A stretch of DNA of 64,000 nucleotides from Acidimicrobiales bacterium. Lineage in GTDB: Bacteria > Actinomycetota > Acidimicrobiia > Acidimicrobiales > SZUA-35. Below, piece after piece: positions 3,001 to 58,430 of the stretch; positions within the stretch are counted from its first letter, which is position 1; each line of letters opens with the position of its first letter. The DNA is taken from NCBI GenBank assembly GCA_020629155.1, contig JAHDDW010000001.1, positions 220,454 to 284,453 of the forward strand, in the 5' to 3' direction. The translations under genes were made by a program, and so were the position numbers. The notes under the pieces were generated by a model, which saw nothing but the letters and a program-made list of their open reading frames with translations, ran no database searches and had not been told where the DNA came from.

Positions 3001-5428
3001 AGATGCCAGAATCGACAAGAATGTTACGGTCGGCAGAGTAAAGGTTATAGCTGAATGAGACATTACCAGGATCTTGCACACTATCGGTTGCATTATCTTG
3101 CCAAGCTAGCCACGTGTTATTATCGCCGGTACTCGTACGACGAGCGTCAGCATAGTTAGGCATATACTTCTTCGTTCCATAACCAGTCGCATCAGGGCGC
3201 ACTTTTAAATCATAGATTTGCGAATATTGAATGTTTTTGTGGCCGTTGTTCCACGCATTGTATTCATCTGTTACTAGCTGATGATCATAGGTAGATTCAA
3301 ACCGGAATTTTGTGACACCAGAGGTGCCGTCAGCCGCAGCGGGAACCATCGTATAGTCTTCATACCAGTCAACAGGGTTACCGGGGGAAGACTCGACGCC
3401 AGCAGCATCGGTGATGTTGACAACGCCATCTCCATTGACATCATCTTCACATGTAGCGTTATCTAAATCAGCTAGCGAACCAGAGCCATTTGGGGAATCA
3501 GAATAGAGGGTTGTTGTCTGAGAAGCAGCATCAATATGCACAATTCTTTCGTTGCCAGTGCCACCCCAGATAACTGCTGAAGGGTTATTCTGCGGAGACT
3601 GCGCATAGGCTGAGCTTGAAGGAATGTCGTAGTACGCCCAATCTATAACTCCACCTGGATCAGCATATTTTGGCCATTTATCCCATGTCGGCACACCAAC
3701 AAACTCATATTGAGTGGTGTCAATTTTGTCACACACCTGAGATTTACCACCATCAATTAGTCGGTAATCATAGATATTTAAAAGCACTGGGAGCACTTCG
3801 TTTTTAGCTCGTAGCTGATCTGCGATCTTTGGATAGTAGGTAGTGTTATCAGATGTTCTTTGGAACGTTTTACGGTACGACCACGGACCTGGAGAACTAA
3901 CCTGCAATAAACCTTTCGTTACGTTATCGCTATTGGCGGTATTTTGATCTGGGCTTCCAATGCCGCCTGGTTCTGAACCAGTTCCGTAATTGTCTAAGTT
4001 ATTCCCAGAAGCATCCTCGGTTGACTGCGGGCTAAACTCGCCAGGGGTATTTGTACTTGTGTCTAAAGCTTGCGCTTCGTTTATGTGGAAGAACTGGCAG
4101 GAACCGCCTGAACAAGTCGGATGGTTATCGACATCAGCCTTCGGAATCCAAATCCCAATACGAATATTAAATAGTGTGCCATCACCGTTAGGGTCACGAA
4201 CATCAATGTTGTCAAGATCAATTTGCATGTTAGGGTCAGCAACACCGTCAGGAACGAATGAAGGTCCTGTCCAATCGAATGGATAGTTAGGTTGTGTACA
4301 CGTTACTGTTGCCCCTGGCCCGTTATTACCGTTGAAAGCACATGCGTTAACTGATGGATCCCAATCATAGAGAAGCGCGCCAGAAGAAAGTGGTGAATCA
4401 TTATTTGTATTATCGTCTGTGAAAATATCTAGAAGGTCATAGTCAGCGTCATATAAGAAACCATCACCGTCAGTGTCAATAAGCTCATCAGGAGAGTCAG
4501 CGATCATCGAACCAGGCTGATAGACAGCGATGAAGTCATATAAGGCTAAGTAACCAGCTTCGCCAGCAGGACCTGGCTTTGCGTCAAGTTTCGGCCAGAT
4601 AGGGTTGCCATCAGCGTCATAGGAAAAACCAACCATTTCCTTTGTAAGATTAACTCTAAAATCCCCGGTGACTAACGATTCGGCAGGCCCATCAGATGCA
4701 GGGGCAGACGTGCCGTTGTTGCCTGTTGCGGCAGAGTTTGAAATACCAGTCGCTGTAACGCTAGCGCCAACAATAGAGTCATTCAACGTGGCTTTGGTGC
4801 CATCAGTTGAAGCGCCGATAACTTTCGCCGCTGGGAAGAAAACTTTATTTGTGCCTTCACGGGCAAACCCGAGATTGCAAAATAATGTTTCGTTATAGCC
4901 GTCGCCATCTAAATCTTGCAGGGCAGAAATAGGTGTGACAATCAGCGGGTCAATTTCACAGCCAGAAGGAATTTCTATCCATTCCTGATGTATTGTTCCT
5001 GTAGCACTTGGAAGCTGCGTTGCCTGATCGTATGGATCAAGCGTCACTGTCGCTGTTAAAAAGTCAACATCGCTATCGTTATTTGACACTTCGACCTTGT
5101 AGGTGTTAGAGTCGCCGATTCTAACGACATCGTTATCTGAACACGTATCTTGACCAGCGAAACCTGGACCATTATCGCCGTCGATAACGACACTGCCATC
5201 GCTGAACGTTCGACCGCTATCAAAGGTGTTTCCTCCTAAGCAGTCATCTGTCTGGTCGCCTGTGTTAAAAGGCTCAGAACCCGTTTTTTCAAGTTCAATA
5301 GTTACCTCGGTGACCGGAACCGCAGCTACCGCTGGAGCAGGGAAAGTAAAGGTTGTCAACAGCACAACCATCGTTGCGAGTATCGCAAACAGGGGTTGGA
5401 CGGGTTTTGAATCGAACCAGGCAAACAT
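1..5428 (-). CDS. Giant secreted surface/adhesin-like protein, N-terminal >=1809 codons only (C-terminus beyond window start)
   Basis: Absent from the ORF track because there is no stop inside the window. The minus frame is open from ATG at 5428 (GAGGAG a few nt upstream) to position 2; several stretches were spot-checked for in-frame stops. N-terminus MFAWFDSKPVQPLFAILATMVVLLTTFTFPAPAVA looks like a signal peptide. Other motifs: DSDGDGVNDTGD-type Ca-binding motifs (~2540-2580), an SdrD-B/Cna-B-like GDLVWWDYGDDGTVNG segment (~1620-1730), a DUF11-like segment (~1130-1330), and tandem ~128-aa domains (nt period 384, position 246 vs 630). Confidence 0.85.
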   Translation of the reverse strand, partial: MFAWFDSKPVQPLFAILATMVVLLTTFTFPAPAVAAVPVTEVTIELEKTGSEPFNTGDQTDDCLGGNTFDSGRTFSDGSVVIDGDNGPGFAGQDTCSDNDVVRIGDSNTYKVEVSNNDSDVDFLTATVTLDPYDQATQLPSATGTIHQEWIEIPSGCEIDPLIVTPISALQDLDGDGYNETLFCNLGFAREGTNKVFFPAAKVIGASTDGTKATLNDSIVGASVTATGISNSAATGNNGTSAPASDGPAESLVTGDFRVNLTKEMVGFSYDADGNPIWPKLDAKPGPAGEAGYLALYDFIAVYQPGSMIADSPDELIDTDGDGFLYDADYDLLDIFTDDNTNNDSPLSSGALLYDWDPSVNACAFNGNNGPGATVTCTQPNYPFDWTGPSFVPDGVADPNMQIDLDNIDVRDPNGDGTLFNIRIGIWIPKADVDNHPTCSGGSCQFFHINEAQALDTSTNTPGEFSPQSTEDASGNNLDNYGTGSEPGGIGSPDQNTANSDNVTKGLLQVSSPGPWSYRKTFQRTSDNTTYYPKIADQLRAKNEVLPVLLNIYDYRLIDGGKSQVCDKIDTTQYEFVGVPTWDKWPKYADPGGVIDWAYYDIPSSSAYAQSPQNNPSAVIWGGTGNERIVHIDAASQTTTLYSDSPNGSGSLADLDNATCEDDVNGDGVVNITDAAGVESSPGNPVDWYEDYTMVPAAADGTSGVTKFRFESTYDHQLVTDEYNAWNNGHKNIQYSQIYDLKVRPDATGYGTKKYMPNYADARRTSTGDNNTWLAWQDNATDSVQDPGNVSFSYNLYSADRNILVDSGISVGKKTVPEGIKVVRGGDIIQFEIQPTVFGLWTGSETGDVIDNLPPGTDYIAGSEEFSVDGGATWMDHAAYLASSPDVVLTSSPTPGGQDPITWSFSSIDAGEQMPLIRYSVQVDSTLTSGNFTNTVTFRARGIAADNRFVTDSDGDGVNDTGDGVGDDVKASYKLTILPKFGFDVLKQTSQEVFNVDEAFTFDLIYKNLGGAPYSGGEFIDILPFNGDSSTTIGGQQSQRTPASNFSGYYDVEEISFGNGETFEVTDVNPSTLNLDPCAASNLPAGYVPSDPAVSGAFYDSLCYQDYVNNGNVLPDGGATGTASAGWQACAASGSPLVVASSCPIAPEDITAIRFRAPTVPTTGGQTVSITLDPSGNLGGEPVYTTDANGVQIVDWANSPAIGDVFTNTFGGRIPEISLNVISNDQSVTSVWGTVGDLVWWDYGDDGTVNGSDGPIAGQTLQIFDSAGQPLYVDPATGAVINAADKATYEAVTGTTLTVYTTVTNGFGNYEFINLPQGSYRIDVINPLSIQTYDLDDGLAANNDSSVFTLAQETDALTGNITGVEDRLDVDFGYRLSVFDVELDKTLLTTGPYILGQEVEFQIDVENLGPDAAPDVEITDAPYGLTYVAGSASPTTGTFTNPVWDVGQLAAGQSESITLKYTITAATLTDPIGNFAEVSDDGAGDYGSDVDSNPGDNTSGTDADDPESDDDLETGTDTHDDEAGIPLTVVADPSIKITKTAGDASDGEIFVNDPEGTVTFTYLVENDGGTDLANATITDDAGTPGDTSDDVTVTSAECPGLALLEPGDVVTCTLELDVTTENSPYQNNAGTTGTPVNDDGDPYPGIENPSDDDIADVVVPPGIEITKTAGGAADGDPLPINEDGTVTFTFVVENTGGTYLTDMTIVDDAGTPGDTSDDVTLTSAECPGLAGPLAPGDTVPCTADFAVDTTPDGSYQNNAGTTGSPTDENGDPLVGEGDPILDEDGNPVLDEFGQPTFEPGEPLFEDPTD

Positions 5429-5560
5429 ATCGCTCCTCGTCCACACCCTCAGAATGGAACACATAGAATTGTTTTGTGCCACCCCTGTCGGACCGAGCTG
5501 GTGCTTTGTGAGGGCTTATCATAAATTGCACTTCCCACGAGAAACCAGAGATACCCTAGT

Positions 5561-5680
5561 GGGTATGTCTATTTTTTGCTTTTCTGCTGAACCGCTTTAC
5601 CCCAAAACCGCTAAAAGCTGCGTGCTAGCGCCCCGAGCGGAGCGGTAATACCGAGGGAATGTATAATTACTAGACATTCC
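5561..5680 (+). repeat. R1 intergenic repeat, copy a (full length, MITE/REP-like)
   Basis: Aligns over ~120 bp with copies at 7634, 11696 and 18073. Core is CCGCTAAAAGCTGCGTG...GAGCGGAGCGG. Terminal hairpin GGGAATGT/ACATTCC lies at 5655-5680. The 5' end GGGTATGTCTA is complementary to the 3' end TAGACATTCC. Confidence 0.85.
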
Positions 5681-5711
5681 TGGTATGAGGCGAAGATGAT
5701 GAAAGTTTGCT

Positions 5712-6491
5712 GTGGCTGAAGGTGATACGCTAAAACGCGCTGAGTTGCGGCTCAAACCCATTTTGCTTAACCAAAAAGTTCTTTCTCTATGGTTTAAAAG
5801 ACTAAAAGGTTACAGACCGAGAACGGGACAAACTATAACGAACGTTGAAGCAGTCGGGAAAAACTTACTTCTAGAGTTTGACCAAAAAATCACTTTGCGG
5901 TCGCATCTAGGCATGTACGGTTCGTGGAAAGCATTTCCCGAAAAAACTCTAGAGATCAGAAGCGTTATGTATAAACCAAAAACTTCAGCGGTTTTGGTTA
6001 CATCAGCAGGTTCTGTGGTCTGTTCAATGCCTCAGATTTTAGAGACATTTCCTACTGCAAGCCGTCCTCAGGCACTTGCAAGATTAGGGCCAGATTTAAC
6101 GAGCGACACTATCGACTTTCACGCTGTAACAGCAGCTGCTTTAGCAAAGCCTCAGGTGATGCTCTGCGAACTGCTGCTTGATCAACACGTCGCTTGCGGC
6201 GTTGGCAATATCTATAAATCTGAAGCCTTATTTCTTTCCACGTTACACCCTTTCCAACTTGTTAAAGAAACAAGTGAGCAGCAGCTGCACGATTTATTCA
6301 TGAAAGCTTCGGCGATGTTACGTAAGAATTCCCTTTCAGGAAACCAGACAAGAAAAACGTCGCCCGTAGGCCAATACTATGTGTATGAACGCTATAGATT
6401 GCCTTGCCGCAGGTGTTCCACGCCAATCAAACGCAGCTATCGAGGCGAATACAAAAGAAGTACCTACTGGTGTCCTCAATGTCAGAAGTAA
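5712..6491 (+). CDS. nei: Fpg/Nei-family DNA glycosylase (endonuclease VIII-like) with Ala2 instead of Pro2
   Basis: GTG start with an in-frame TGA 12 nt upstream. N-terminus is M-AEGDT (family consensus MPEGDT). Has the GK(N)LLLEF motif, an H2TH-like region (GPDL) and a C-terminal zinc finger CRRC...CPQC. Confidence 0.8.
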   Translation: MAEGDTLKRAELRLKPILLNQKVLSLWFKRLKGYRPRTGQTITNVEAVGKNLLLEFDQKITLRSHLGMYGSWKAFPEKTLEIRSVMYKPKTSAVLVTSAGSVVCSMPQILETFPTASRPQALARLGPDLTSDTIDFHAVTAAALAKPQVMLCELLLDQHVACGVGNIYKSEALFLSTLHPFQLVKETSEQQLHDLFMKASAMLRKNSLSGNQTRKTSPVGQYYVYERYRLPCRRCSTPIKRSYRGEYKRSTYWCPQCQK

Positions 6492-6509
6492 CAACCACTA
6501 GCTTTCGCC

Positions 6510-7181
6510 TCAAATTGTAAAGTCTGAAGAATCTATCTCCTTTTTCCCTGCTTCGATAGCGTCACCTATCACTTTGGCTACAAACTGCGGATTCAAACCT
6601 TTAGGGAAGGCAGGTGCTGTGCCTTCGACTGGGCGTGTAGCGAGGCCTGTTTCAGTATGAGGAGGTCTCGCATCGATTACGGTGATTGCTTTACGTCTCG
6701 CTTCTCTAGCAAAACCTTGAACAAAGGACGCAGCCGCTGCTTTCGAAGCCCCATAGGTTGCCATACCTGGAAAGTTCTTTTCGGCTACAACACCAGAAAT
6801 ATTTACAAGCAAACTGTTTTCTTCTAGCGACGGCAGCGCCGATTTGAAAAGCAGTATCGGGATAAACACATTCGTCAAAAAAAGTTCTTCCATAGCATCA
6901 CTCGATAGATTTTCGACTTCGCCAAATGCGACAACGCCAACACAGTTAATCACCGCATCTAAACGACCAAGCTTGTTCTTTGCCCAATCGATCGCGTTGA
7001 CACAAGCTTCTTCCGAGCGAAGATCTATCATCAAATTAGAATCGCCTAGGTCGACCGCTCTTGAGGATGTCACAATGCTAGCGCCACGATCTCGAAGATC
7101 ATGCACAAGAGCAGTGCCTATGCCGCCTGAACCTCCAGTAACTAAAATATTCTTTTGATCGAATTGATAGTGTTTACTCAT
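6510..7181 (-). CDS. Short-chain dehydrogenase/reductase (SDR)
   Basis: TGGSGGIG NAD(P)-binding motif near the N-terminus, YGASK catalytic motif, ~223 aa. Confidence 0.85.
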   Translation of the reverse strand: MSKHYQFDQKNILVTGGSGGIGTALVHDLRDRGASIVTSSRAVDLGDSNLMIDLRSEEACVNAIDWAKNKLGRLDAVINCVGVVAFGEVENLSSDAMEELFLTNVFIPILLFKSALPSLEENSLLVNISGVVAEKNFPGMATYGASKAAAASFVQGFAREARRKAITVIDARPPHTETGLATRPVEGTAPAFPKGLNPQFVAKVIGDAIEAGKKEIDSSDFTI

Positions 7182-7614
7182 GGGAGTAACTCTAATCGCT
7201 CATTTCCTAGCTACTGCTTTAATGACAGGGATTATTTGGTTTGTGCAGCTAGTTCACTACCCACTTTTTTCACAAGTTGGTTCCGAAAAATTTGTGGCGT
7301 ATGAGAATGCCCATACCAAGCTGACCGCTATCACTGTAGGGCCGCCCATGCTGGTTGAAGGGCTAACCGCTTTAGCGCTTACGCCACTCCTTTTCCCTGA
7401 TTTACACTGGGCATTTTCGATAGCCAACCTGCTTCTTTTAGCTGCGACCCATGCAAGTACCGTTTTGCTTCAAGTGCCGCTGCACTCTTTGCTATCTAAA
7501 AAATATGATGAGAACAACATCAAAAGGCTTGTCATCACAAATAGTATCCGAACAGGGCTCTGGTCAGCGCGTTCGCTACTAATCGCAGCCGTTATCATCC
7601 AACAACTACCGTAA
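7180..7614 (+). CDS. Small polytopic membrane protein (possibly DUF1772/anthrone-oxygenase-like)
   Basis: 144 aa with about 4 hydrophobic helices. Family assignment is from memory only. Its ATG overlaps the divergent SDR start codon, so the true start may lie downstream. Confidence 0.5.
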   Translation: MGVTLIAHFLATALMTGIIWFVQLVHYPLFSQVGSEKFVAYENAHTKLTAITVGPPMLVEGLTALALTPLLFPDLHWAFSIANLLLLAATHASTVLLQVPLHSLLSKKYDENNIKRLVITNSIRTGLWSARSLLIAAVIIQQLP

Positions 7615-7633
7615 GGAACTATGAGCTCATCTA

Positions 7634-7754
7634 GGCTATCTCTATTTATTCTTTTTGTATCGAATCGTTTTACCAGAGAACCGCTAAAATCTGCGTGAAA
7701 ACGCCCCAAGCGGAGCGGAAATATCGAGGGCATCTACAATACTTAGAGATGCCC
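7634..7754 (+). repeat. R1 intergenic repeat, copy b (full length)
   Basis: GGCTATCTCTATTT...CCGCTAAAATCTGCGTG-GAAA hairpin-AAGCGGAGCGGAAATATCGAGG, followed by terminal hairpin GGGCATCT/AGATGCCC (7728-7754). Confidence 0.85.
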
Positions 7755-9194
7755 TTTATTATCTTGCCAAACCAGCTGTTCAAGAGCACAGTAGACCTTG
7801 CTTCGAGGTACAGCAAAATAGTTCTTCTAGAGGAACCTATTTTCTTTCAAGATTGGAAATACCCAGTTACCTTTCATAAGCAAAAGCTTATTCTCCATCG
7901 AGCTTCTATGAAAGCACATGAGGATTACCTTCAACAAGCTGGCGTAGCAACTGAATATATCGAGTACGCAGACGCTAAAAACTACGTTGATTCTTCTTCG
8001 AACGTGACAATGTATGACCCTGTTGATTACGAGCTGCAAAAGCGTTTCGCTACAGCAACGTGTATTGAAACGCCATTGTTCATCAATTCTGCAGAAGAAA
8101 ATAATCGTTATAGGCAATCGAAAAAACGTTGGCATATGGCTGATTTTTACAAGCATCAGCGGCGGCGCTTCGATATCTTGATGGACGGAGACACACCTGT
8201 TGGCCGAAGCTGGAGTTTTGATAAAGAGAACCGAAAGAAAATCCCTAAAAACAAGCTAAACGATATACCAGATCGCGAATTTCCAGAAGAATCAACCTAC
8301 GTCACAGAGGCAAGAGTCTACGTTAACAAGAACTTTCCTGACGCACTCGGAAGCGACACGCCGTTTCTCTACCCTGTCACCTTTGACCAAGCAAGTCGTT
8401 GGCTAGACCACTTTATAGAAAATTGCCTGGAACGTTTCGGGCCGTATGAAGACGCTCTTGTGCCGCAACAAAGCTGGCTTTATCACAGTGTTTTAACACC
8501 AATGCTAAACATCGGTTTGCTAGAGCCAACGCAACTAGTCGACCGTGTTATAGAAAAACATAACGCCGGAGATATTCCGTTGAACAGCACCGAAGGTTTT
8601 ATCCGTCAAGTTATCGGATGGCGCGAGTTTATGCGAGCAACCTACCAAGACCTCGGCGTGACCATGAGAACGTCAAACTTCTGGAATCATACGACGAAAA
8701 TCCCTCAAACTTTTTGGAATGCCGACACTGGCATAACACCGATCGATGACGTAATAAAAAGAGTTCTTGCCACAGGCTACTGCCACCATATCGAACGGTT
8801 GATGGTGCTCGGCGGCTTCATGTTTTTATGCGAATTTGACCCCAAAGAAATATATAAATGGTTTATGGAAATGTTTGTCGACTCCTATGACTGGGTGATG
8901 GTTCCAAATGTCTATGCAATGAGCCAACACGCCGACGGCGGGCTGATCACCACAAAACCATATTTTTCGGGATCTGCCTATCTAAAAAAGATGGGCTACA
9001 GCGACACTGGCGAATGGTGCCAACTTTGGGATGCACTGTATTGGCGGTGGATACTCAAACACTCAGACGAGCTAAGGAAAAACCCTCGATGGGCAATGAT
9101 GTGCAGCATGGCAGACCGTATGGAAGAAACCAAAAAAGCAAACCACTTGCGCCTAGCTGCTGAGTTTCTTAGAAAACTTGAAGGGCATCCCTGA
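7749..9194 (+). CDS. Cryptochrome/photolyase-family protein (COG3046-type, deoxyribodipyrimidine photolyase-related / FeS-BCP-like)
   Basis: N-terminus MPFIILPNQLF fits the family N-terminus. Conserved HHIERLM, WREFMR and DSYDWVMVPNV motifs are present. The ORF-track start at 7695 (GTG) lies inside the R1 core, so ATG 7749 is preferred. Confidence 0.8.
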   Translation: MPFIILPNQLFKSTVDLASRYSKIVLLEEPIFFQDWKYPVTFHKQKLILHRASMKAHEDYLQQAGVATEYIEYADAKNYVDSSSNVTMYDPVDYELQKRFATATCIETPLFINSAEENNRYRQSKKRWHMADFYKHQRRRFDILMDGDTPVGRSWSFDKENRKKIPKNKLNDIPDREFPEESTYVTEARVYVNKNFPDALGSDTPFLYPVTFDQASRWLDHFIENCLERFGPYEDALVPQQSWLYHSVLTPMLNIGLLEPTQLVDRVIEKHNAGDIPLNSTEGFIRQVIGWREFMRATYQDLGVTMRTSNFWNHTTKIPQTFWNADTGITPIDDVIKRVLATGYCHHIERLMVLGGFMFLCEFDPKEIYKWFMEMFVDSYDWVMVPNVYAMSQHADGGLITTKPYFSGSAYLKKMGYSDTGEWCQLWDALYWRWILKHSDELRKNPRWAMMCSMADRMEETKKANHLRLAAEFLRKLEGHP

Positions 9195-9200
9195 ATCCAA

Positions 9201-9264
9201 GCATCTCTAAAAATTGTAGATGCCATGGGTATTTCCGCTGCGCTTGTCGCGGTAGCACGCAGCT
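9201..9264 (-). repeat. R1 intergenic repeat, copy c (right half only, reverse orientation)
   Basis: Reverse complement reads AGCTGCGTG...AAGCGCAGCGGAAATAC..GGCATCT-loop-AGATGC. It abuts the stop of the VWA gene. Confidence 0.75.
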
Positions 9265-10691
9265 CAAGCGAGGTTGTCTACAAATTTTTCTAATTGTTGC
9301 AAGTTACGCACCTCAAAAACTTGGTCGCAGCATTGGCTATAAGGCTCCATGATTGAGTCACCTGTGTCCCAGTACGGTTTCGGTTCTGGGTTAAGCCAAA
9401 ATAGTTTGCGAGCTTTCTTGCCTATCTGCGCTAACGCTTCGACGTTTGTCTCATGATAGTTATTGCGAGCGTCGCCTAAAAAAAGCACCGTCGATTTTTT
9501 GGTTACCTCGCCACTATATTTTTGGTCGAAAACTTCCAACGCATGGCCATAGTTCGAATGGCCATCAGTCCAGACAACATCAGCTTGCTGGTTAACTAAC
9601 GCCAGCGCTTGGTCAAAGTCCTCATTTTCTGCGAGATAATTAGTCACTTCATCAAGCCCGTCGATAAACACAAACGAGCGGACGTTACTGAACTGCGAAG
9701 CCAGCGCATGCACAAGATAAAGGGTAAACCTCGCAAAGGAAGCCACCGAACCTGAGATATCGGCGATAACAAAAATTTCTGGCTTCGCTGGACGTTGCTG
9801 ACGATATTTCACCTCGGCTGGCACTCCCCCATAACTTAGCGAATGACGCATCGTGCTACGAAAATCGAGCGTACCACGCCTTTTATTACGCCGCTTACGT
9901 GCTAAACGAACCGCTATTTTTCGAGCCAACGGTTTAATAGCATCCGTGATAGCAGCCATTTCTTCTTTGCTTGCGTGGATAAAATCGACATCTTCTGTCA
10001 ACGTTTGCCGTAACGTTTTCGCGACAGCCGCTGACCCTCTATCAGCCACAAGACGACGGCGGATCTCATCTTCGACTGCTTTTTTGAACTCTTGCGCTAC
10101 TTTCTTAACATGCTCTTCATGCAAACGCTTCTCGAAATCTGTTGCGTCTACAGCCGCGCTATCTTCGGCGACTTGTGCTACAAGCTCGTCCAAGTGAAGT
10201 TTGCGCAGCGTCTTAAAAAGATAATAGTTAACCCCAACTGGTCGGCCAGCAACAATATCGCCATAATTACGCACCGCATGTCGTGCAGAATATCGAAGTG
10301 AACTTTCTTCACCAGTTGTCAGCGCATGCTGTACAGCACTGCGAAGTTCATCGTCATCTAATGAATGTTGTGTCTCTTGCCCAGATGTTTGTTCAGTCCT
10401 CACTGGCTCTTCTTCAGAGTCTTCGCCTTCAAACACTTCGGTACTGAGACCTTCACCAGCATCGAAATCGTTACGCTTGGTCGACGAAAAAAATATGTCA
10501 AATGCAGTATGGAACGCTTCTTTATGGTCAGCTTTTTTGATGACGGTTGCCGCTAACGATTCACGGACCACACAACGATTAGACAAATCTATAACCGTTA
10601 ACGCTTGTAATGCGTCAGTTTTTTCTGTAACCGAAATAGGAAGCCCAACAGCTCTAAGCTCATCAAAAAACGCGTCAACTGTTTCGATCAT
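9264..10691 (-). CDS. VWA domain-containing CoxE-like protein
   Basis: 475 aa. The C-terminal VWA region has a DISGS MIDAS-like motif (FVIADISGSV). Sits immediately downstream of a MoxR-type ATPase, the classic pairing. Confidence 0.8.
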   Translation of the reverse strand: MIETVDAFFDELRAVGLPISVTEKTDALQALTVIDLSNRCVVRESLAATVIKKADHKEAFHTAFDIFFSSTKRNDFDAGEGLSTEVFEGEDSEEEPVRTEQTSGQETQHSLDDDELRSAVQHALTTGEESSLRYSARHAVRNYGDIVAGRPVGVNYYLFKTLRKLHLDELVAQVAEDSAAVDATDFEKRLHEEHVKKVAQEFKKAVEDEIRRRLVADRGSAAVAKTLRQTLTEDVDFIHASKEEMAAITDAIKPLARKIAVRLARKRRNKRRGTLDFRSTMRHSLSYGGVPAEVKYRQQRPAKPEIFVIADISGSVASFARFTLYLVHALASQFSNVRSFVFIDGLDEVTNYLAENEDFDQALALVNQQADVVWTDGHSNYGHALEVFDQKYSGEVTKKSTVLFLGDARNNYHETNVEALAQIGKKARKLFWLNPEPKPYWDTGDSIMEPYSQCCDQVFEVRNLQQLEKFVDNLA

Positions 10692-10733
10692 GGCTGCGCC
10701 TCCCCAAAGCTTTCTGCCTGGCGTTGCCTGACA

Positions 10734-11627
10734 TCACGTAATAACGAGTTCTTTTTGGACTTTCTCAATATCGCTGCGATATTTACAAAGCACCGTTAAC
10801 GTTTGGTCAAGCACTTCAGTGTCGATACTTTGTTTCCCTAATAGAAGTAGCGTCTGTGCCCAATCTAGCGTTTCGGAAATCGATGGGTCTTTCTTCAAAT
10901 CAAGCGCACGAATCGACGCCACAACAGCTGCGACCTGCTCTGCTAACTGCTGCGAAATTTCAGGCAGTTTCGTCTGAATAATCTGCTGCTCACGCAGTGC
11001 ATCCGGGTAGTCCATATGCAAGAAAAGACAGCGCCGTTTTAACGCTTCAGAAAGTTCACGGGTATTATTTGACGTCAGAAAAACCAGCGGGATCTGTTTC
11101 GCTTTAATCGTGCCTAGCTCAGGGATTGAGACTTGATAGTCTGACAAGATTTCAAGCAGTAACGCTTCGGTTTCTATTTCTACTCTATCGACCTCGTCGA
11201 TCAACAAAACAACAGGGTCTTGTGCAGTGATTGCTTCAAGCAATGGCCGTGAAAGCAGAAAATCTTCAGTAAAAATATCATCTTGCATCTGTTGCCATGT
11301 CGAAGAACCTGCATCAGCGGCCGCTTGTGCGTTTTCAACTTGAATACGAAGAAGCTGCTTTTTGTAGTTCCATTCATACAACGCTTTTGCTTCGTCGAGG
11401 CCTTCATAACATTGCAAACGCAATAAACGAGCGCCGAGCATCTCAGCCACAGACTTTGCTAACTGTGTTTTGCCTGTCCCTGCTGGGCCTTCAACCAAAA
11501 TTGGTTTGCCAAGACGATCGGCTAGAAACGACGCGCTAGCCGTTGCCTCATCGGCAAGATAGTCAACGTCAAGTAAACGTTTCTGAACGCTGCTAACTGA
11601 CTCAAATCTATGTTCCATCGAGGACAT
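10734..11627 (-). CDS. MoxR/CoxD-like AAA+ ATPase
   Basis: Walker A GPAGTGKT, Walker B LLIDEVDR, ~297 aa, followed by a VWA partner gene. Confidence 0.88.
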   Translation of the reverse strand: MSSMEHRFESVSSVQKRLLDVDYLADEATASASFLADRLGKPILVEGPAGTGKTQLAKSVAEMLGARLLRLQCYEGLDEAKALYEWNYKKQLLRIQVENAQAAADAGSSTWQQMQDDIFTEDFLLSRPLLEAITAQDPVVLLIDEVDRVEIETEALLLEILSDYQVSIPELGTIKAKQIPLVFLTSNNTRELSEALKRRCLFLHMDYPDALREQQIIQTKLPEISQQLAEQVAAVVASIRALDLKKDPSISETLDWAQTLLLLGKQSIDTEVLDQTLTVLCKYRSDIEKVQKELVIT

Positions 11628-11695
11628 CCTATCTTACTGAAAGCTGCATGCTAGCTCCTCGCGCGAGACGAGAATATTGAGCAACTCCCCTTTAT

Positions 11696-11817
11696 GGCTA
11701 TCTCTATTTGTTGCTTTTCTGCTGAATAGCTTGACCAGAAAACCGCATACCTGCTGCGTGCACACGTGCCAAGCGCAGCGGAAATACTGAGGGAATGTAG
11801 AATATAATGACATTCCC
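11696..11817 (+). repeat. R1 intergenic repeat, copy d (full length, more diverged)
   Basis: GGCTATCTCTATTTG...CTGCTGCGTG-CACACGTG-CCAAGCGCAGCGGAAATACTGAGG, followed by hairpin GGGAATGT/ACATTCCC (11791-11817). Directly abuts the ftsX stop codon. Confidence 0.8.
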
Positions 11818-12732
11818 TTACGCATCAAGATATTTAGAAACAGCAACACCCGCTGCCGAAGCGCCCAGCAGCGACCCGATAAGCAACATCGCAATAACAA
11901 TAAGCGTTTCTTGACCAAAGTTTAGGATAAAGGTAGAAAACTTAGGGATAGAAGTAAACATTTCATTAATAAAAAAGTTCACGAGGAAGATGCTGACGCC
12001 ACTAGCAACAGCGCCTAAGACACCTTGCAAAAGCCCTTCAAACATAAAAGGAATACGGACAAACCATTTCGTTGCTCCGACAAGTCGCATCACTTCAATT
12101 TCTTTACGACGAGCAAATACAGCTGTGCGAATCGAGTTATACATTAACAACGTTGCGGCAAAAGCCGCGACAACAGCGAAACCACCAGAAATCCAAGAAA
12201 TATAGGAAGCGATTCGAGTTTCTTCTTTAATCACATCAGTAGCGACAGATATCCTATCGATTCCTGGTGCACCACTCAGGGAATCTTTAACCTGATTAAC
12301 AATGCTAATATCAGGTTTGCTTGGTGTCACAACGAACGAGGTAGGAACAACGTCGGGGCTGATGAGAGCAATAATTTCAGGGGCGTCTTTGAAATAGCGT
12401 TGAACTTCTGAAAGCGTTTTGTCTCTGTCAACATAGTTGAGGTCTTTGATAAATGGATTAGCTTCCATTTTGGCTCGCAGGTCCTGTGTGATCTGCTCCA
12501 GCTCAGGATCGGTAAGAACAACTCCGTTGTCTTCAGTTTTCAACCAAACAACAAACGAAACCTCTGATTCAGCTTCTGCTTTAAGGTTCGCGGTGCCCCA
12601 AAAAACTGTTAACGCTATGCCAAGCAGTGTCAACGAAATCGCTACTGTCAAGACATTACCAATCGTCAAAGCAGGGTTGCGTAGAAAGTTTCTTGTTGTC
12701 TCTTTTGTTAGATAATCAATTCTAAGTGCCAT
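11818..12732 (-). CDS. ftsX: Cell-division ABC transporter permease FtsX
   Basis: Start is [19 protein letters not shown], 8 nt after the ftsE stop; the ORF-track N-terminal extension overlaps ftsE and is rejected. Has TM1, an extracellular domain and 3 C-terminal TMs. Confidence 0.9.
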
Positions 12733-12739
12733 TTCAACC

Positions 12740-13420
12740 TTACTCGTACACACCACGGTGCTGGTCGCGGACAATATTGCCATGTGAAAGTTCAATCACA
12801 CGCTTGCGCATAGTATCGACAATACCTCGATCGTGGGTAGCCATAACAACTGTTGTGCCTGTCTTATTAATACGGTCTAGAAGGCGCATAATGCCGATAG
12901 AAGTCTGCGGGTCAAGGTTACCTGTAGGCTCGTCTGCGAGCATTATAAGCGGCCTGTTCACAAACGCCCTTGCAATTGAGACACGCTGCTGCTCGCCACC
13001 TGAAAGCTGGTCTGGGTACTTATCCATTTTGTCTTCCAAACCGACAAGGCTACAAATTTGCGGAACTTGGCTAGCAATAACGCTCCGTTTGCGGCCAATA
13101 ACTTCCAAAGCAAAAGCGACATTCTCAGCAACTGTTTTTGTTTGCAGCAATTTAAAATCTTGAAAAATATTGCCAATATTACGTCGCAGCATTGGCACTT
13201 TCCAAGAAGACATTTGCCCGATATCTTTGCCAGCTACAAAAATACGGCCTCTATCTGGCTCTTCCTGTTTTGTCAAAAGTCGCAGCAACGTTGATTTGCC
13301 TGAGCCTGATGGACCAACAAGAAATACAAATTCGCCTTTGCCGATGTCGATATCGGCTTGCACTAATGCTGCACGAGCCTGCCCTTCATACCTTTTTGCA
13401 ACACCTTCAACTTTAATCAT
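12740..13420 (-). CDS. ftsE: Cell-division ABC transporter ATP-binding protein FtsE
   Basis: Walker [10 protein letters not shown], signature LSGGEQQR, Walker [11 protein letters not shown], 226 aa, upstream of ftsX. Confidence 0.95.
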
Positions 13421-13523
13421 TACCTTGCCTCAATCTAACAAACGGACATCGCTGCATGATCTTTTCACAGGCTATCGTAAGAAGTGGAAAGAACCATTCA
13501 TCTAACTAAAGGCGCACCGAGTC

Positions 13524-14129
13524 TCAAGATTCTTGCGGCTTCAAAACAAAAAAGCCGAGCCAGAGAACAATCAGCGCTGAAAGCGGTAGTGCTAACGCAC
13601 CTATCAAAGGCCAATTTTCGCTTTGTGTCACTTCAGAAGGTTCGACAGAAACCTTATCTATATTCGGCAAACCATTTAGGAAGTTACCAAAGTCTTGCAC
13701 TGACGCTTCATTTTGGGGAGTTACGACAAAAGAAGTGGGCGCCATGTTGGTGCTACCAATCAAATCAATGATCTCAGGCGATTCTACAAAATACTGTTCT
13801 AGTTGGGCTTGCGACTCATCTTTATCGATATAACGAAATTCTTTCACCAGCGGATTGTTGTCTAGCTGCGCAGCAATAGTACGTTGTATTTGATCTATCT
13901 GGTCATCGGTGAAGCTATCATCTTGTACCTTTCCATATGAAAATTCAGGTTCATTAGCTGGCAGCCAGACAACAGCGCTCCCCTGCTCAATTGTTTCTAC
14001 CTCATCAAGATTTTTTGCTAACACAAAGATGCCTACTGCGCTAAGAACAACAAACCACATGCCTAATGAGGCGTAGAGAAAAATATCTAGGCGCAGCCGT
14101 CTAGATTCGGTATTGTTTATAACATTCAT
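13524..14129 (-). CDS. FtsX-like protein retaining only TM1, the extracellular domain and one C-terminal TM (mini-FtsX paralogue)
   Basis: 201 aa. The central ~110 aa align with the FtsX extracellular domain encoded 1 kb away (e.g. NPLVKEFRYIDKD..YF..SPEIIDLI...APTSFVVTP vs [23 protein letters not shown]...VPTSFVVTP). Hydrophobic segments at both ends. Confidence 0.8.
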   Translation of the reverse strand: MNVINNTESRRLRLDIFLYASLGMWFVVLSAVGIFVLAKNLDEVETIEQGSAVVWLPANEPEFSYGKVQDDSFTDDQIDQIQRTIAAQLDNNPLVKEFRYIDKDESQAQLEQYFVESPEIIDLIGSTNMAPTSFVVTPQNEASVQDFGNFLNGLPNIDKVSVEPSEVTQSENWPLIGALALPLSALIVLWLGFFVLKPQES

Positions 14130-14180
14130 TTTGCCCGCCTACGTTTGGTTCTAACCTCTCAGGGTACAGGACGAGAGAGC

Positions 14181-15290
14181 TTACTCACCGTCAGACATAC
14201 GCCAGCGCAACCAAGACTCCATAAATGGGCGAACATCGCCGCCCAAAACGCCATCAGGATTGCCAGAGGTTTCCCCGCTGCGTTCGTCTTTCACCATCTG
14301 GTAGGGATGCATCACATAGGAACGAATCTGGCTCCCCCACTCAACCTTTTTCGATTCACCAGCTTCGTTTGCCAGTTCATCTTCACGTTTCTGCTGTTCT
14401 AACGCAAACAGTTTCGCTGTCAGCATTGTCATACAGCGCTCTTTGTTTTGATGCTGGCTACGTTCATCTTGACACGACACAACGATACCTGTTGGCATAT
14501 GCGTGACACGAACTGCCGAATCTGTTGTATTCACATGCTGGCCGCCAGCACCCGACGAACGAAACACATCGACCCGCAAATCTTTATCGTCAATATCGAC
14601 CTGCCCTACCTCTTCTTCTGGGATAACAGGCACCACTGCGAACGAAGCAAACGCTGTGTGACGCCTAGCCTGTGAATCAAACGGCGAGATACGTACGATG
14701 CGGTGAACCCCTCGCTCGGCTTGCAACAAGCCATAGGCATAGCGGCCACGAATAATAAACGAAGCAGATGAGATGCCGGCTTCATTACCTTTTTGCAGAT
14801 CGGTCTGCTCGAACTCAAACCCTTGTTGTGCTGCCCACCGTTCATACATATTTAGGAGCATCTCAGCCCAATCTTGTGCGTCAACACCACCAGCACCAGA
14901 GTTAAGGTCGCATGCCGCATCGCCTTGGTCATACTGGCCAGTAAATAACGCTCGTAATTCAAGCTCGGAAAACTCTGTCTTGGTAGCTTCAGCTAAAGCA
15001 GCAGCCTCAGCCTGTAATGACTCATCTTGCTCTTCGCCTGCTAGGTCATAGAGCACTTCGATATCGTCGATCTGTGACGCAAGCCGATCATAGAGATCAA
15101 GGTCGTCTTTTGTTGCAGCGAACTCTGTTTGCACCTTACGAGCACGATCGGCATCGTCCCACAAGTCTGGACGCCCCATCTCAGTTTCGAGCTGCGGCAA
15201 CCGTGAACGCAGCTCATCGATGCAAAGGTACTGTTTTGCTTCGGTGAGTTTTGCCGCTAATGGCGCAATCAAATCTTTCGTCTCTGCCAT
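14181..15290 (-). CDS. prfB: Peptide chain release factor 2
   Basis: Contains SPF, the GGQ motif (GAGGQHVN) and a typical RF2 N-terminus. The 369-aa ORF is uninterrupted, with no programmed +1 frameshift site. Confidence 0.97.
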   Translation of the reverse strand: MAETKDLIAPLAAKLTEAKQYLCIDELRSRLPQLETEMGRPDLWDDADRARKVQTEFAATKDDLDLYDRLASQIDDIEVLYDLAGEEQDESLQAEAAALAEATKTEFSELELRALFTGQYDQGDAACDLNSGAGGVDAQDWAEMLLNMYERWAAQQGFEFEQTDLQKGNEAGISSASFIIRGRYAYGLLQAERGVHRIVRISPFDSQARRHTAFASFAVVPVIPEEEVGQVDIDDKDLRVDVFRSSGAGGQHVNTTDSAVRVTHMPTGIVVSCQDERSQHQNKERCMTMLTAKLFALEQQKREDELANEAGESKKVEWGSQIRSYVMHPYQMVKDERSGETSGNPDGVLGGDVRPFMESWLRWRMSDGE

Positions 15291-17987
15291 CTATTTTCCG
15301 TGACACTGCTTAAACTTTTTACCACTATCGCATGGACATGGAGCGTTACGAGGTGTCTTATCCCACTCGCTTTTCACAACAGGAGCAGCTGTTTGCGGCT
15401 CAGCATCTTGCTCTTCGCTACGAACAGACGAACTTTCAGCTTTCTCTGCTGTTACTTCTGTTGTAACTGGAGCAGGTGTTTGCGCCGCTGGTGCTTCAAC
15501 TGTTTGCGTTTCTTCCTGTTGCACAACAACTTCGATACGCATTAGATAGCGAATAAAATCTATATTAAGCGATGTCAACATAGATTTAAACATCTCGAAA
15601 CCTTCACGCTGCCATTCAGTGAGTGGATCACGCTGCCCCATCGCACGCAGGTTAATACCTTCACGCAGCGAAGCCATATCGGTTAAGTGATCACGCCAAC
15701 GCTGATCGATCAGCTCAAGCATTACTTTGCGCTCCAACTTACGTATGATCTCTTCGCCTAACTCAGCTTCGCGTTCTTCATAACGAGTCTCGCCTTCTGC
15801 AACAATTGTTTCATGAATCTCTTTAGATTTATCTAGCTCTTCCAACTCTTCAAGTGCAATATCTGTTCTCCAGAAAGAAGAAAGTTCTGTATGTAACGCT
15901 TCAAGATCCCATGTGTCGTCTAACTCGTCCATGCAATGTGTCTGCACAAGATAGGTAGCAACATCATCAATAGCGGTGTGTGCTTCTTCGCTCAAATCGC
16001 CTTGTTCGAGAATTTGCATGCGACGTTTATAAATTATTTTGCGTTGCTGGTTATAGACCTCGTCGTATTTCAAAACATTCTTACGAGTTTCAGCGTTACG
16101 CTGCTCGACTGTTGTTTGCGCACGCTCCACCGATTTAGAAACCATTTTCGCTTCGATAGGCACATCGTCAGGCAACGCTTTACCCATGACCCAACTCATA
16201 GCTCCAGAAGCGAAAATACGCATCAAGTCATCTTCCAGCGACAGGAAGAACCGGCTCTCACCAGGATCGCCCTGACGCCCTGAACGACCACGCAACTGAT
16301 CATCAATGCGACGACTTTCGTGACGCTCTGTAGCTAAGACATAAAGACCACCGGCTTCGAGAACTGTTTTTTGGTTCTTCTCACAAATTGGCGACCAATA
16401 GGCTAAACGCTCATTATAAAACGCTTTCCCTTCGTCGCTTTCTTCGTCATAGCCTTCAGCGGCAACGTCAGACTCGGCAAGTTTTTCGGCATTGCCACCC
16501 AAAATAATGTCGACACCACGGCCAGCCATATTCGTCGCCACAGTGATAGCTCCAGGTTTACCAGCTTGGGCGACAATATCGGCCTCACGAAAGTTCGCTT
16601 TTGCGTTTAACACTTCGTGCGCTAAACCACGTTTTGTCATCAGCTCACTGAAAACCTCAGACTTCTCGACCGACGCTGTACCAACAAGCACAGGCTGGTC
16701 TTTAGCGACACGTTCTCTAATATCGTCGATCGCAGCCTCGAACTTCGCAAGTTCTGTTTTATAAATCATGTCGTCTTTATCGAGACGAGCTATCGGTTTG
16801 TTCGTAGGAATCTGAACAACTGAAAGATCATAGGTATTTTCAAGTTCAACCGCATCGGCTTGCGCCGTACCTGTCATGCCACCAAGTTTTTCATACATGC
16901 GGAAATAGTTCTGCAACGTTACGGTCGCAAGTGTCTGCTGCTCTTCCTTGATAGCAACACCCTCTTTAGCTTCAACAGCTTGATGCAGCCCATCTGACCA
17001 GCGACGACCATCTAAGACACGGCCTGTGAACTCGTCAACAATCTTAATTTCGCCGTTATCGATAAGATAATCTTTATCACGTTTAAAGAGCTCTTTCGCC
17101 CGTAACGACACATAGAGCTGGTGGACTAAATCGCCTTGCACACCATCATAAAGATTGCTGATATCTAACATCCTTTCGACGTTTGAAATACCTTCATCGG
17201 TGATGGCGACCACACGTTTTTCTTCATCAACTTCATAGTCAACATCGCGAGTAAGACGCGCGGCGACAGCAGAAAATTTTATATATAAATCAGCGGCACC
17301 TTGCATCTTGCCGCTGATAATCAAAGGCGTTCGAGCCTCGTCAATTAGAATAGAGTCAATTTCGTCCACAATGGCAAAACTATGACCACGTTGCGTCATT
17401 TTTTCTAGGCTGCTCGCCATATTGTCACGCAGATAATCAAACCCAAATTCGTTATTTGTGCCATAGGTTATATCACACGAATATTGCGCTTTTTTATGTG
17501 CTTTGTCGTTCTGCCCAGGCACAACCAAACCAGTAGTTAATCCATGCCAACCGTGAACTTGCCCCATCCACTCAGCGTCACGAGTCGCCAAATAGTCATT
17601 GACAGTAACAACATGCACGCCTTTGCCAGCAAGCGCGTTGAGATAGACAGGCAAAGTAGAAACAAGTGTTTTACCTTCACCTGTTTTCATTTCGGCGACT
17701 GAACCCCAATGCAAGGTAGCGCCACCCATAAGCTGCACGTCGTAGTGACGTTGCCCAATGACTCGGCTTGCTGTTTCGCGCACAACGGCAAACGCTTCGA
17801 TCATAATGTCGTCCAAAGAAGCGCCGTTAGCTAAACGCTCTTTAAATTCAACCGTTTTTGCTTTCAGCTCAGTATCGCTCAGGGCTTTAATTTCAGGCTC
17901 TAACGCATTAACTGGTTGAACGATTTTTTGTACTTGTTTTAGACGTTTACCGTCACCTATAGTTAGGATTTTATCGAGAAGCTTCAT
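15291..17987 (-). CDS. secA: Preprotein translocase ATPase SecA
   Basis: 898 aa with Walker A MKTGEGKT, DEVDSILIDEARTPLIISG and the C-terminal zinc motif CPCDSGKKFKQCHG. Its stop codon abuts the prfB start. Confidence 0.98.
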   Translation of the reverse strand: MKLLDKILTIGDGKRLKQVQKIVQPVNALEPEIKALSDTELKAKTVEFKERLANGASLDDIMIEAFAVVRETASRVIGQRHYDVQLMGGATLHWGSVAEMKTGEGKTLVSTLPVYLNALAGKGVHVVTVNDYLATRDAEWMGQVHGWHGLTTGLVVPGQNDKAHKKAQYSCDITYGTNNEFGFDYLRDNMASSLEKMTQRGHSFAIVDEIDSILIDEARTPLIISGKMQGAADLYIKFSAVAARLTRDVDYEVDEEKRVVAITDEGISNVERMLDISNLYDGVQGDLVHQLYVSLRAKELFKRDKDYLIDNGEIKIVDEFTGRVLDGRRWSDGLHQAVEAKEGVAIKEEQQTLATVTLQNYFRMYEKLGGMTGTAQADAVELENTYDLSVVQIPTNKPIARLDKDDMIYKTELAKFEAAIDDIRERVAKDQPVLVGTASVEKSEVFSELMTKRGLAHEVLNAKANFREADIVAQAGKPGAITVATNMAGRGVDIILGGNAEKLAESDVAAEGYDEESDEGKAFYNERLAYWSPICEKNQKTVLEAGGLYVLATERHESRRIDDQLRGRSGRQGDPGESRFFLSLEDDLMRIFASGAMSWVMGKALPDDVPIEAKMVSKSVERAQTTVEQRNAETRKNVLKYDEVYNQQRKIIYKRRMQILEQGDLSEEAHTAIDDVATYLVQTHCMDELDDTWDLEALHTELSSFWRTDIALEELEELDKSKEIHETIVAEGETRYEEREAELGEEIIRKLERKVMLELIDQRWRDHLTDMASLREGINLRAMGQRDPLTEWQREGFEMFKSMLTSLNIDFIRYLMRIEVVVQQEETQTVEAPAAQTPAPVTTEVTAEKAESSSVRSEEQDAEPQTAAPVVKSEWDKTPRNAPCPCDSGKKFKQCHGK

Positions 17988-18072
17988 GACGCTAACAGTC
18001 TAACCCTTCAAATCGTCAGCCACCTCGAAAAAATATATCTCTACACTACTTTCACCATCTCTTTAACTTTAG

Positions 18073-18193
18073 ACTGCCTCTATTTATTTGTTTTGTATCA
18101 AATCGCTTTACCAGAAAACCGCTAAAATCTGCGTGGAAGCATCCACCGAGCGGAGCGGAAATATCGAGGCCATCTATACTAAATAGAGATACC
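18073..18193 (+). repeat. R1 intergenic repeat, copy e (full length)
   Basis: CCTCTATTTATTTG...CCGCTAAAATCTGCGTG-GAAGCATCCAC-CGAGCGGAGCGGAAATATCGAGG...TAAATAGAGATACCC. Termini CTCTATTTA/TAAATAGAG are complementary. Confidence 0.85.
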
Positions 18194-18278
18194 CAATAGG
18201 TAGTGTTTCAATCACACTCCAAAAAGCTGGCCAAGAGCGCAACCACCACGCTACCGCTTAGAATCACTCATAGTACCT

Positions 18279-18608
18279 ATGAGGCTTCTTACCTGCACAT
18301 TTGAATTCAACGGTGACGCCTCATTGCTCAATAACGCAGCCGCAGTAGAACGTTCGTTGCAAGAAATCACCAAACTGGCTGGCTTCACTATATGTAAACA
18401 ACAAAGCCACATTTTCACTCCTATAGGCGTTAGCATGACCATGATTTTGTCTGAATCACACATAGCGGCACACACCTGGCCAGAAAAAAACTTCGCATAT
18501 ATTGCGTTGACCTCCTGCAAAGCGGTTGCGACTTCTTTCTATGATGAGGCGACCGTTGCGATAAAAAGCTGTTTCGCTTCCACTTCTGTAACATATGAGG
18601 CTCTTTGA
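18279..18608 (+). CDS. speH: S-adenosylmethionine decarboxylase proenzyme (small SpeH type)
   Basis: 109 aa. LSESHIAAHTWPE matches the self-cleavage/pyruvoyl motif of class 1 AdoMetDC. Stop overlaps the next start (TGATG). Confidence 0.8.
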   Translation: MRLLTCTFEFNGDASLLNNAAAVERSLQEITKLAGFTICKQQSHIFTPIGVSMTMILSESHIAAHTWPEKNFAYIALTSCKAVATSFYDEATVAIKSCFASTSVTYEAL

Positions 18609-23067: not shown

Positions 23068-23100
23068 AACTAGATGGTTGATTCTTAGCCTATTCAGGGT

Positions 23101-56737: not shown

Positions 56738-56755
56738 TGGCGCAAGATCGTATTA

Positions 56756-56824: not shown

Positions 56825-56861
56825 GGTGGTTCGCCGATCAAGTAGAAATGGAGGTCAGCCG

Positions 56862-58403: not shown

Positions 58404-58430
58404 GAAACACCTAGCTGCTAGGTTATTCCT

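Follow-up and report, generated by a model that had tools for sequence, protein, structure and literature searches.

Small dispersed repeats are common in bacteria. The Correia elements of Neisseria (CREE/NEMIS) are non-coding, about 100-155 bp long and bounded by terminal inverted repeats (TIRs), and they lie scattered, in both orientations, at gene boundaries, where they form hairpins and outward promoters are possible; they duplicate a TA target and carry an integration host factor (IHF) site. Repetitive extragenic palindromes (REPs), with the related BIME and REPIN forms, are units of 20-40 nt with a conserved 5' GTAG, present in hundreds of copies beside the gene of a RAYT (REP-associated tyrosine transposase), a Y1 HUH enzyme. 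ERIC/IRU (about 126 bp), RUP, BOX and bcr1 are enterobacterial or firmicute repeats, and bcr1 and RUP have defined target duplications. Mycobacterial interspersed repetitive units (MIRUs) measure 46-101 bp, are often tandem and are always oriented with the operon. Palindrome-associated elements derived from IS200/IS605 (PATEs) carry a hairpin at each end, the two in direct orientation, and their insertion site lies 3' of a fixed tetra- or pentanucleotide. To our knowledge, small dispersed repeats have barely been described in the Acidimicrobiia, a large and mostly uncultured class. Here, we analyzed a 64,000-nt stretch of an Acidimicrobiales genome (contig JAHDDW010000001.1, positions 220,454 to 284,453, hereafter the window) that contains a structured repeat named R1. 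For practical purposes, R1 is comparable to the Correia, ERIC, REP/BIME and MIRU-type repeats. It appears to be a new family within an ordinary type of selfish mini-element, not a new principle, and we consider it slightly more probable than the opposite that R1 is a lineage-specific, non-autonomous dispersed repeat of the REP or miniature inverted-repeat transposable element (MITE) kind, moved in trans.

R1 is a non-coding repeat of about 124 nt, present in the window as four full copies, all on the forward strand, and two right-half copies on the reverse strand. These copies were recovered alike by repeat finding, MAFFT, nhmmer and a covariance model, and the six locations proposed in the initial annotation were confirmed. 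The full copies are copy a (5561-5681, +; nhmmer E = 1.6e-38, covariance model 96.7 bits), copy b (7634-7756, +; 4.9e-39, 100.8 bits), copy d (11696-11818, +; 8.6e-37, 81.4 bits) and copy e (18073-18195, +; 3.4e-36, 82.5 bits), which nhmmer delimited at 5560-5681, 7633-7755, 11695-11818 and 18071-18194, all on the forward strand (E = 5e-39 to 3e-36). The right halves are copy c (9201-9277, -; nhmmer E = 3e-13, 74.7 bits), located between convergent genes, and copy f (56754-56835, -; 56755-56842 by nhmmer, E = 8e-15; 85.8 bits). With the covariance model of the right half, the six copies scored 75-101 bits, and the full copies were 68-83% identical to each other in pairs. The R1 core boxes gave 8 matches compared to 0.54 expected from shuffled sequence, and 5 compared to 0.24. 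The covariance model added a decayed copy at 46463-46542 (-, 22.7 bits, E = 0.003), which corresponds to a probable copy g in the rpsO-pnp spacer (46463-46581, -; nhmmer E = 6e-6). Directly upstream of copy d, a possible decayed right-half fragment, d0 (11637-11693, +), was weakly detected, with the match itself covering 11637-11681 (nhmmer E = 0.023, covariance model E = 5.7). The 3' arm of copy c may reach about 9178, with a 16-nt internal duplication, and a solo 3'-arm motif, AGAGATACCC (5547-5556, +), directly adjoins copy a.

R1 is composed of two modules. The left module (about 45 nt) consists of the end motif GG(G/C)TAT(C/G)TCTA, a T-rich stretch and TT(T/G)ACC. The right module (about 80 nt) consists of (A)ACCGCTAAAAKCTGCGTG, 10-12 variable nt, RAGCGSAGCGGWAATA, NNGAGG and a terminal hairpin, in which GGGNATST and ASATNCCC enclose an A/T-rich loop of 9-11 nt. 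The conserved core is formed by GCTGCGTG and AGCGSAGCGGWAATA at a distance of 10-12 nt and can also be written AGCGGAGCGGAAATA. Conservation is concentrated in the AGCGSAGCGGWAATA block, with 13 of its 15 columns invariant (permutation p = 0.005). The partial copies c, f and d0 all retain the right module and no left-only copy was observed; right-module-only copies would be either 5'-truncated insertions or the minimal mobile unit. In its size, intergenic location, imperfect palindrome, modular composition and truncated variants missing one module, R1 is similar to ERIC/IRU, RUP, BOX and bcr1, whereas its sequence is unrelated to theirs, its host belongs to the Actinomycetota and it does not show the defined target duplications of bcr1 and RUP. 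At 50850-50880 (-), where a beta-lactamase-family gene has its annotated start, AAAAAGCTGAGCGGAGCGGAACAA resembles the R1 core minus its central 14 nt and is either a remnant or a chance match (nhmmer E = 6).

As in MITEs, the ends of R1 form terminal inverted repeats, although imperfect ones, the 3' arm of the hairpin being an inverted copy of the 5' end motif. The 5' end agreed with the reverse complement of the 3' end at 9 of 11 positions in copies a and b, at 7 of 11 in copy e and at 6 of 11 in copy d. The description of R1 as a dispersed, non-coding, hairpin-bearing repeat with imperfect TIRs was thereby supported. It had also been proposed that the 5' terminus of each copy matches its own 3' terminus; this is true of copies a, b and e but not of copy d, which combines a C-type 5' end with a G-type hairpin, and agreement in three of four copies with two variants is compatible with chance.

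The terminal stem, which is G-type in copy a (GGGAATGT/ACATTCC), C-type in copy b (GGGCATCT/AGATGCCC) and reads GGGGATGT/ACATCCCC in copy f, was 94% paired over the six copies. Two of its eight pairs were changed on both sides, one of them through A-U, C-G and G-C and the other through C-G and G-C. The covariation score of 0.259, compared to 0.164 in shuffles, was reached by none of 500 shuffles and exceeded all slid controls. The C/G swap splits R1 into two subfamilies (b, c, e and a, d, f) and the other covarying position changes again within each of them, which corresponds to about three independent double changes. This is good evidence for pairing, yet only suggestive, as it comes from only six related sequences. 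A short stem kept by compensatory change is likewise a property of REP and REPIN sequences. The compensatory changes first reported for the R1 hairpins therefore stand for the terminal hairpin but not for the central one, where the 5' arm GCGTG is invariant, the partners change register and no pair was changed on both sides. The case for a copy-specific hairpin at the centre, as had been suggested, is also weak: its 5' arm does not vary, and the form CGTG-CA-CACG would need an impossible 2-nt loop. The core helix CCGCT/AGCGG was 67% paired and showed no covariation. Folded as single-stranded DNA, the copies gave z-scores of -1.6 to -4.1, and as RNA of -0.9 to -3.1.

Such features could also belong to a structured RNA family, cis-acting element or small RNA, encoded by the right module and kept for its fold and its single-stranded boxes. 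The covarying terminal hairpin and the concentration of conservation in the core would fit such an RNA, as would the RNA z-scores of copies b and d (-2.3 to -3.1), and the U-G pairs in the RNAalifold core helix would fit an RNA of the forward strand. However, the RNA z-scores of copies a (-0.9) and e (-1.7) are unremarkable, the core helix is incompletely paired (67%) and does not covary, and the one mismatch in the copy e hairpin (C.A) is a wobble pair on the opposite strand only. Neither a promoter nor a terminator is consistent across copies, orientation and position relative to genes are inconsistent, and copy f is translated through by an open reading frame (ORF) of 47 aa. In addition, Rfam gave no match at the gathering threshold in the whole window and none on the R1 copies at E <= 5. 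We regard a structured RNA as rather unlikely.

Other identities for the conserved segments were considered and rejected. R1 has no conserved ORF in any frame, with stops in most frames and no conserved start, which dismisses a small conserved peptide. An intrinsic terminator was rejected because the terminal hairpin has a loop of 9-11 nt, longer than the 3-8 nt of such terminators, and no T run and was not reported by the terminator scan; terminator properties were observed only in an accidental hairpin at the left end of copy a, where AGAGATACCC and the 5' end of the copy form a 10-bp stem followed by a T run. A LexA/Cheo box and a RecA-NDp-type motif did not fit by eye, either in the left module or upstream of the TAnnnT sequence of the hairpin loop.

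We then considered the genes around the copies. The spacers that hold R1 are divergent (a, e), tandem (b, d, f, g) or convergent (c), and R1 occurs in either orientation; placement indifferent to gene layout and orientation is as expected of a selfish element. In this scatter along gene boundaries, as well as in size, TIRs and hairpin folding, R1 is similar to the Correia elements. Copy a is flanked on one side by the start of a giant surface-protein gene (-) and on the other by a nei/fpg-like gene (+), and copy e separates secA (-) from the divergent AdoMet-decarboxylase gene (+). In copy b, the 3' arm contains ATG 7749, the likely start codon of a photolyase-related (DPRP) gene, of which the Pfam match begins three codons later. 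The stop codon of a VWA gene (9264-9266) is at the 5' edge of copy c and that of the DPRP gene (9192-9194) in or beside its 3' arm, and the ftsX stop codon (11818-11820, -) abuts the 3' end of copy d. As a secondary effect, R1 may donate start and stop codons to adjoining genes, and this appears to have occurred at the start (7749) and at the end (9192) of the photolyase-related gene.

The hairpin loop contains TAnnnT, the actinobacterial -10 consensus, which is invariant in 6/6 hairpins whereas the other loop positions vary, and it may secondarily drive outward transcription. In copy b, TACAAT precedes ATG 7749 by 7 nt and no Shine-Dalgarno (SD) sequence lies ahead of the ATG, a layout of the leaderless type. 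R1 could accordingly be read as a portable promoter or leaderless-start cassette, in which the loop would act as a sigma-A type -10 element with transcription starting in the descending arm, so that C-type arms (AGAGATGCC) would put an ATG at about +1 and offer a ready-made leaderless start to the gene behind. Copies might persist for this reason, or the function could be no more than a by-product of a selfish repeat. Four of the seven copies (a, b, e and g) point into the start of a co-directional gene, but the other three (c, d and f) face the 3' end of a convergent one; no -35 element was found, the consensus promoter scan did not single out the R1 sites, and TAnnnT is missing from the same-stem hairpins of R2, another repeat family of the window (see below). 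We consider a promoter cassette unlikely. The division of the copies between gene starts and convergent gene ends argues that promoter activity, plausible from the loop motif, would be a by-product of R1 and not its purpose.

Two further readings depend on the neighbouring genes. The CCGCT and AGCGG-AGCGG boxes could be operators of a DNA-binding regulator acting near DNA-repair genes (nei, photolyase-related, helD): three copies adjoin repair-type genes and the AGCGSAGCGGWAATA block is nearly invariant. Nevertheless, the shared sequence of about 124 nt is much longer than an operator, several copies are found at the 3' ends of genes, the copy at helD is inserted DNA that relatives lack, and the remaining copies flank secA, ftsX and polyamine genes, which makes such a regulon very improbable. 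Similarly, the size of about 120 nt, the imperfect palindromes, the clustering, and the start and stop codons of adjoining genes recall integron-type attC sites, in a cassette array or a cluster of attC sites lacking an integrase (CALIN). However, RYYYAAC and GTTRRRY boxes are missing, the R1 ends being GGCTATCTC... and ...GAGATGCCC, orientations are mixed, the copies are separated by housekeeping genes (secA, prfB, ftsEX) rather than by cassettes, and Pfam detected no integrase among the window ORFs. Judged by motif and without a dedicated attC model, the missing boxes and the wrong gene content effectively refute attC sites, to which we assign a negligible probability.

Evidence for insertion comes from copy f. 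This copy is located exactly where two overlapping HelD/UvrD-like helicase genes meet, at a stop/start overlap. In the related genome with the same neighbours (L013) and in two others (L011 and L012), no spacer separates the N and C genes, whose overlaps measure 11 and 4 nt, and the site of copy f is empty in all three (helicase loci L011 3001-5441 and L013 3001-5503). In the window, the junction is duplicated, with 43 nt present at 56711-56753 and again at 56836-56878 (alignment score 41, null maximum 22), and 82 nt of R1 lie between the two junction copies. The left one (+) contains the last codons and stop of the helicase N gene together with the SD sequence and ATG of the 47-aa ORF, and the right one (+) contains the GGAGG SD sequence and ATG 56862 of the helicase C gene. 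Their last 17 nt are identical and their first 26 nt only 65% identical. Compared with the related genomes, the two states form a clear empty-site and filled-site pair, and copy f is demonstrably an insertion. R1 is thus, like MITEs, small, non-coding, multi-copy (6-8 copies) and associated with an empty site in relatives.

The 43-nt duplication leaves both helicase genes intact. Copy f had initially been thought to split a gene, which was wrong, as the two flanking genes are already separate in related genomes. Most Acidimicrobiia homologues of the helicase are likewise N-part-only proteins of about 510-650 aa, which indicates that the two-gene state is ancestral. As a separate observation, the HelD/UvrD-like superfamily 1 (SF1) helicase (55094-57653) is divided, here and in most Acidimicrobiia homologues, between two overlapping genes, the N part having about 510-650 aa and the C part about 270 aa; a minority of homologues are fused (about 785-867 aa). 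The 47-aa ORF (MAQDRIRGCSFSIHPLTISAPLRALARSFWWFADQVEMEVSRWRKIV; 56737-56880, +) reads through copy f and overlaps both neighbours; its start is at a TAATG that overlaps the upstream gene and its end lies 18 nt past the ATG of the downstream gene, and a gene caller predicted it in a short-read contig of the same organism. In copy f, this small ORF overlapping an upstream stop and a downstream start within an operon recalls the MIRUs, whose host phylum is also actinobacterial. In contrast to MIRUs, the overlapping arrangement exists in copy f only, where it is the product of the 43-nt duplication, and the other copies are not at operon junctions.

At copies a-e and g, flank-to-flank alignment showed no target duplication above the shuffled background. 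The 43-nt duplication may reflect staggered-break repair with R1 as filler, or may reflect selection for a rare insertion that spared both overlapping genes. It could also recall a SINE-like retro-mobile element, inserted by target-primed reverse transcription from the 3' hairpin, which would generate 5'-truncated copies and long, variable target duplications. All partial copies retain the 3' end and lack the 5' part, being cut at different points, as this would predict. However, no target duplication was detectable around the full-length copies, an A-rich or simple tail is missing, and no reverse transcriptase was found in the 73 kb read here. We know of no SINE-like retro-mobile element in bacteria, and consider this origin barely credible.

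We therefore return to a repeat of the MITE or REP kind moved in trans. An enzyme whose gene lies elsewhere in the genome would have placed the R1 copies at gene boundaries and would recognise the hairpin or end motif together with the conserved core. R1 may be recognised as a folded single strand, the way REP/RAYT or IS200/IS605-type elements are, rather than moved by classical cut-and-paste with a DDE transposase. We favour this option because the stem is kept by compensatory change and there is no fixed short target duplication, although the preference is tentative and the mechanism itself doubtful. Both properties are shared with REP/BIME/REPIN sequences, and the subterminal hairpins, the lack of target duplication and the lack of an ORF are shared with PATEs. 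In contrast to PATEs, no fixed flanking tetranucleotide is evident and a left-end hairpin exists in copy a only. In contrast to REPs, R1 is 124 nt long with a large non-palindromic core, and no RAYT gene was found in 73 kb.

Several observations weigh against this reading. Conservation is stronger in the core than at the ends, a pattern that is unusual for a MITE, differs from the Correia elements and could point to a host function. The sequence read shows only 6-8 copies. No transposase, integrase, reverse transcriptase or Y1/HUH enzyme was detected by Pfam among about 56 window ORFs, and none appeared among the genes called in the next 9 kb; the statement of the initial annotation that the window has no transposase holds. 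No target duplication was found at copies a-e and g, and the 43-nt duplication at copy f is far longer than the usual products of transposases. In place of the fixed short target-site duplication of a MITE, TA is found near both ends at variable offsets; R1 shows no consistent TA duplication, in contrast to the Correia elements, which belong to another phylum and share no sequence similarity with R1. The REP signature GTAG is not conserved in R1, where it occurs only in the loop of copy d, and the single-stranded DNA type of mechanism is purely inferential.

We also looked for R1 beyond the window and in other genomes. The window is a piece of a bacterial chromosome, with 44-53% GC (about 46% around the R1 copies) and genes including secA, prfB, ftsEX, pnp and aconitase. 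The closest non-self relatives of its SecA are <=74% identical, and the named ones come from metagenome-assembled genomes (MAGs) of Acidimicrobiia/Acidimicrobiales (Actinomycetota). The host is an uncultured member of the Acidimicrobiia with a chromosome of 46% GC and no close relative in the collections searched. The SecA of the window also occurs in a 563,777-bp NCBI contig and in Logan assemblies of run SRR14415274. Short-read contigs of the same organism were available as Logan assemblies of run SRR14415274 and extended the window by 9 kb, so that about 73 kb of the host genome were read; the additional 9 kb contained no R1. Window-identical Logan contigs end inside copy a (5616; contig L007) and copy b (7668 and 7683), and run unbroken through copies c, d, e and f. 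As the breaks are inside R1 and not at its edges, further copies sharing >=31-mers with a and b would be present elsewhere in the genome, and R1 copies closer to a and b than those read here probably exist.

The secA loci of relatives contained neither R1 nor the hairpin motif. In the relatives L003 and L006 (9383-10001), hpf, the hibernation-factor gene, precedes secA on the same strand, whereas in the window (17987-18279) the place before secA is taken by copy e and by a divergently oriented polyamine operon with AdoMet decarboxylase and spermidine synthase; this synteny break at secA coincides with R1 copy e. No plasmid or phage record matched copy b in blastn at word size 11, and the region 5000-19000 had no megablast match among plasmids. 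Large collections were scanned with the pattern CTGCGTG-N8-14-RAGCGSAGCGGWAATA, which fits all six copies. It gave one chance match, in a coding region of a Bacillota MAG, among the GTDB species genomes (which do not include the host genome), and no match in JGI metagenomes and IMG/VR. A looser pattern gave 45 JGI matches that we treated as chance, since nhmmer found no similarity beyond the pattern region in any of them and the six that were inspected had no hairpin. A concatenated six-frame R1 peptide query had no match and was uninformative, as it also missed known self-derived ORFs. A profile of the open minus-strand frame, compared to 1.84 billion representative proteins, retrieved only the 47-aa ORF of the window and low-complexity proteins. 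A literature search on MITEs in Acidimicrobiia found nothing. Judged by Rfam, the plasmid and phage records and the pattern scans, R1 matches no described family, as first suggested.

The window contains a second structured repeat family, R2, with the unit GTCATCCCCAACTTGATTGGGGATCTCCTTGGCCAGATTCCCAGTCGTAGCTGGGAATGAC and overlapping short hairpins. R2 is present as an 80-nt tandem array (43343-43615), as one copy (59167-59279) and as a single unit (23100-23144). The array, downstream of pnp, comprises three tandem 80-nt units and 21-nt sub-repeats that contain GTAG. The middle hairpin of R2, GGGGATCT-N8-AGATTCCC, has the same consensus as the terminal hairpin and end motif of R1, the motif GGGNATST/ASATNCCC being common to both families (shared consensus GGGNATCT/AGATNCCC). 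Logan contigs break inside R2 too, at 23126, 59195 and 59271. Related hairpins common to several repeat types of one genome are known from REPs, as are units that are single, abutting or tandem, comparable to the left arm of copy a, to d0-d and to the R2 arrays; GTAG, not conserved in R1, is present in R2.

Hairpins of the GGGNATST class were counted 11 times in the 64 kb (8 by regex, to which the hairpins of copies a, c and e, not caught in this way, were added), compared to none in about 115 kb of related-genome loci. This difference suggests a common recognising factor or a common origin for the shared R1/R2 hairpin. It is conceivable, though improbable, that R1 and R2 are both cargoes of one hairpin-guided mobility system of the Acidimicrobiia, with the stem GGGNATST/ASATNCCC and a putative enzyme, in which R1 would be a mobile expression cassette that installs a leaderless start or a stop codon by means of its loop -10 and an in-stem ATG at the transcription start.

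Several other features of the window were recorded. A very large ORF (2-5515, -; >1838 aa) extends past the edge of the window. Its product, with DUF11, DUF7507 and SdrD_B domains, is probably a repetitive cell-surface protein, and the DNA of the ORF contains internal repeats of about 384-390 nt (113-766). The Fpg/Nei-family glycosylase at 5712-6491 (+) has the N-terminus V(M)-A-E-G-D-T, with Ala at the position that is normally the catalytic N-terminal Pro2, so that either its start is mis-set or the enzyme is atypical. Between prfB and ftsE, an extra ORF (13524-14129, -; 201 aa) has the FtsX extracellular domain only; a full ftsX (11818-12795, -) is also present downstream of ftsE, and the relative L006 lacks the extra FtsX-domain ORF. 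In the long spacer upstream of the aconitase gene (27070), two adjoining 30-nt palindromes (ACAAATCGGAAGTAGTAATTCCGATTTGTA and a variant; 26775-26836) resemble, by sequence appearance, paired operators. Between an HD-domain gene and a Fic/DOC gene (58270-58404) lie two direct repeats of 63 nt with 79% identity and the palindrome CTTATCGTCACATGTGACGATAAG, possibly a regulatory region.

Taken together, R1 leaves the current understanding of mobile DNA as it is. As a defined family, it explains assembly breaks of this organism and is a marker for strain typing, and copy f shows cleanly how an insertion can leave two overlapping genes intact through a 43-nt duplication at the point where they meet. 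If the -10 element of the loop and the in-stem ATG are indeed used, R1 would be a mobile element that supplies leaderless starts in an actinobacterium.

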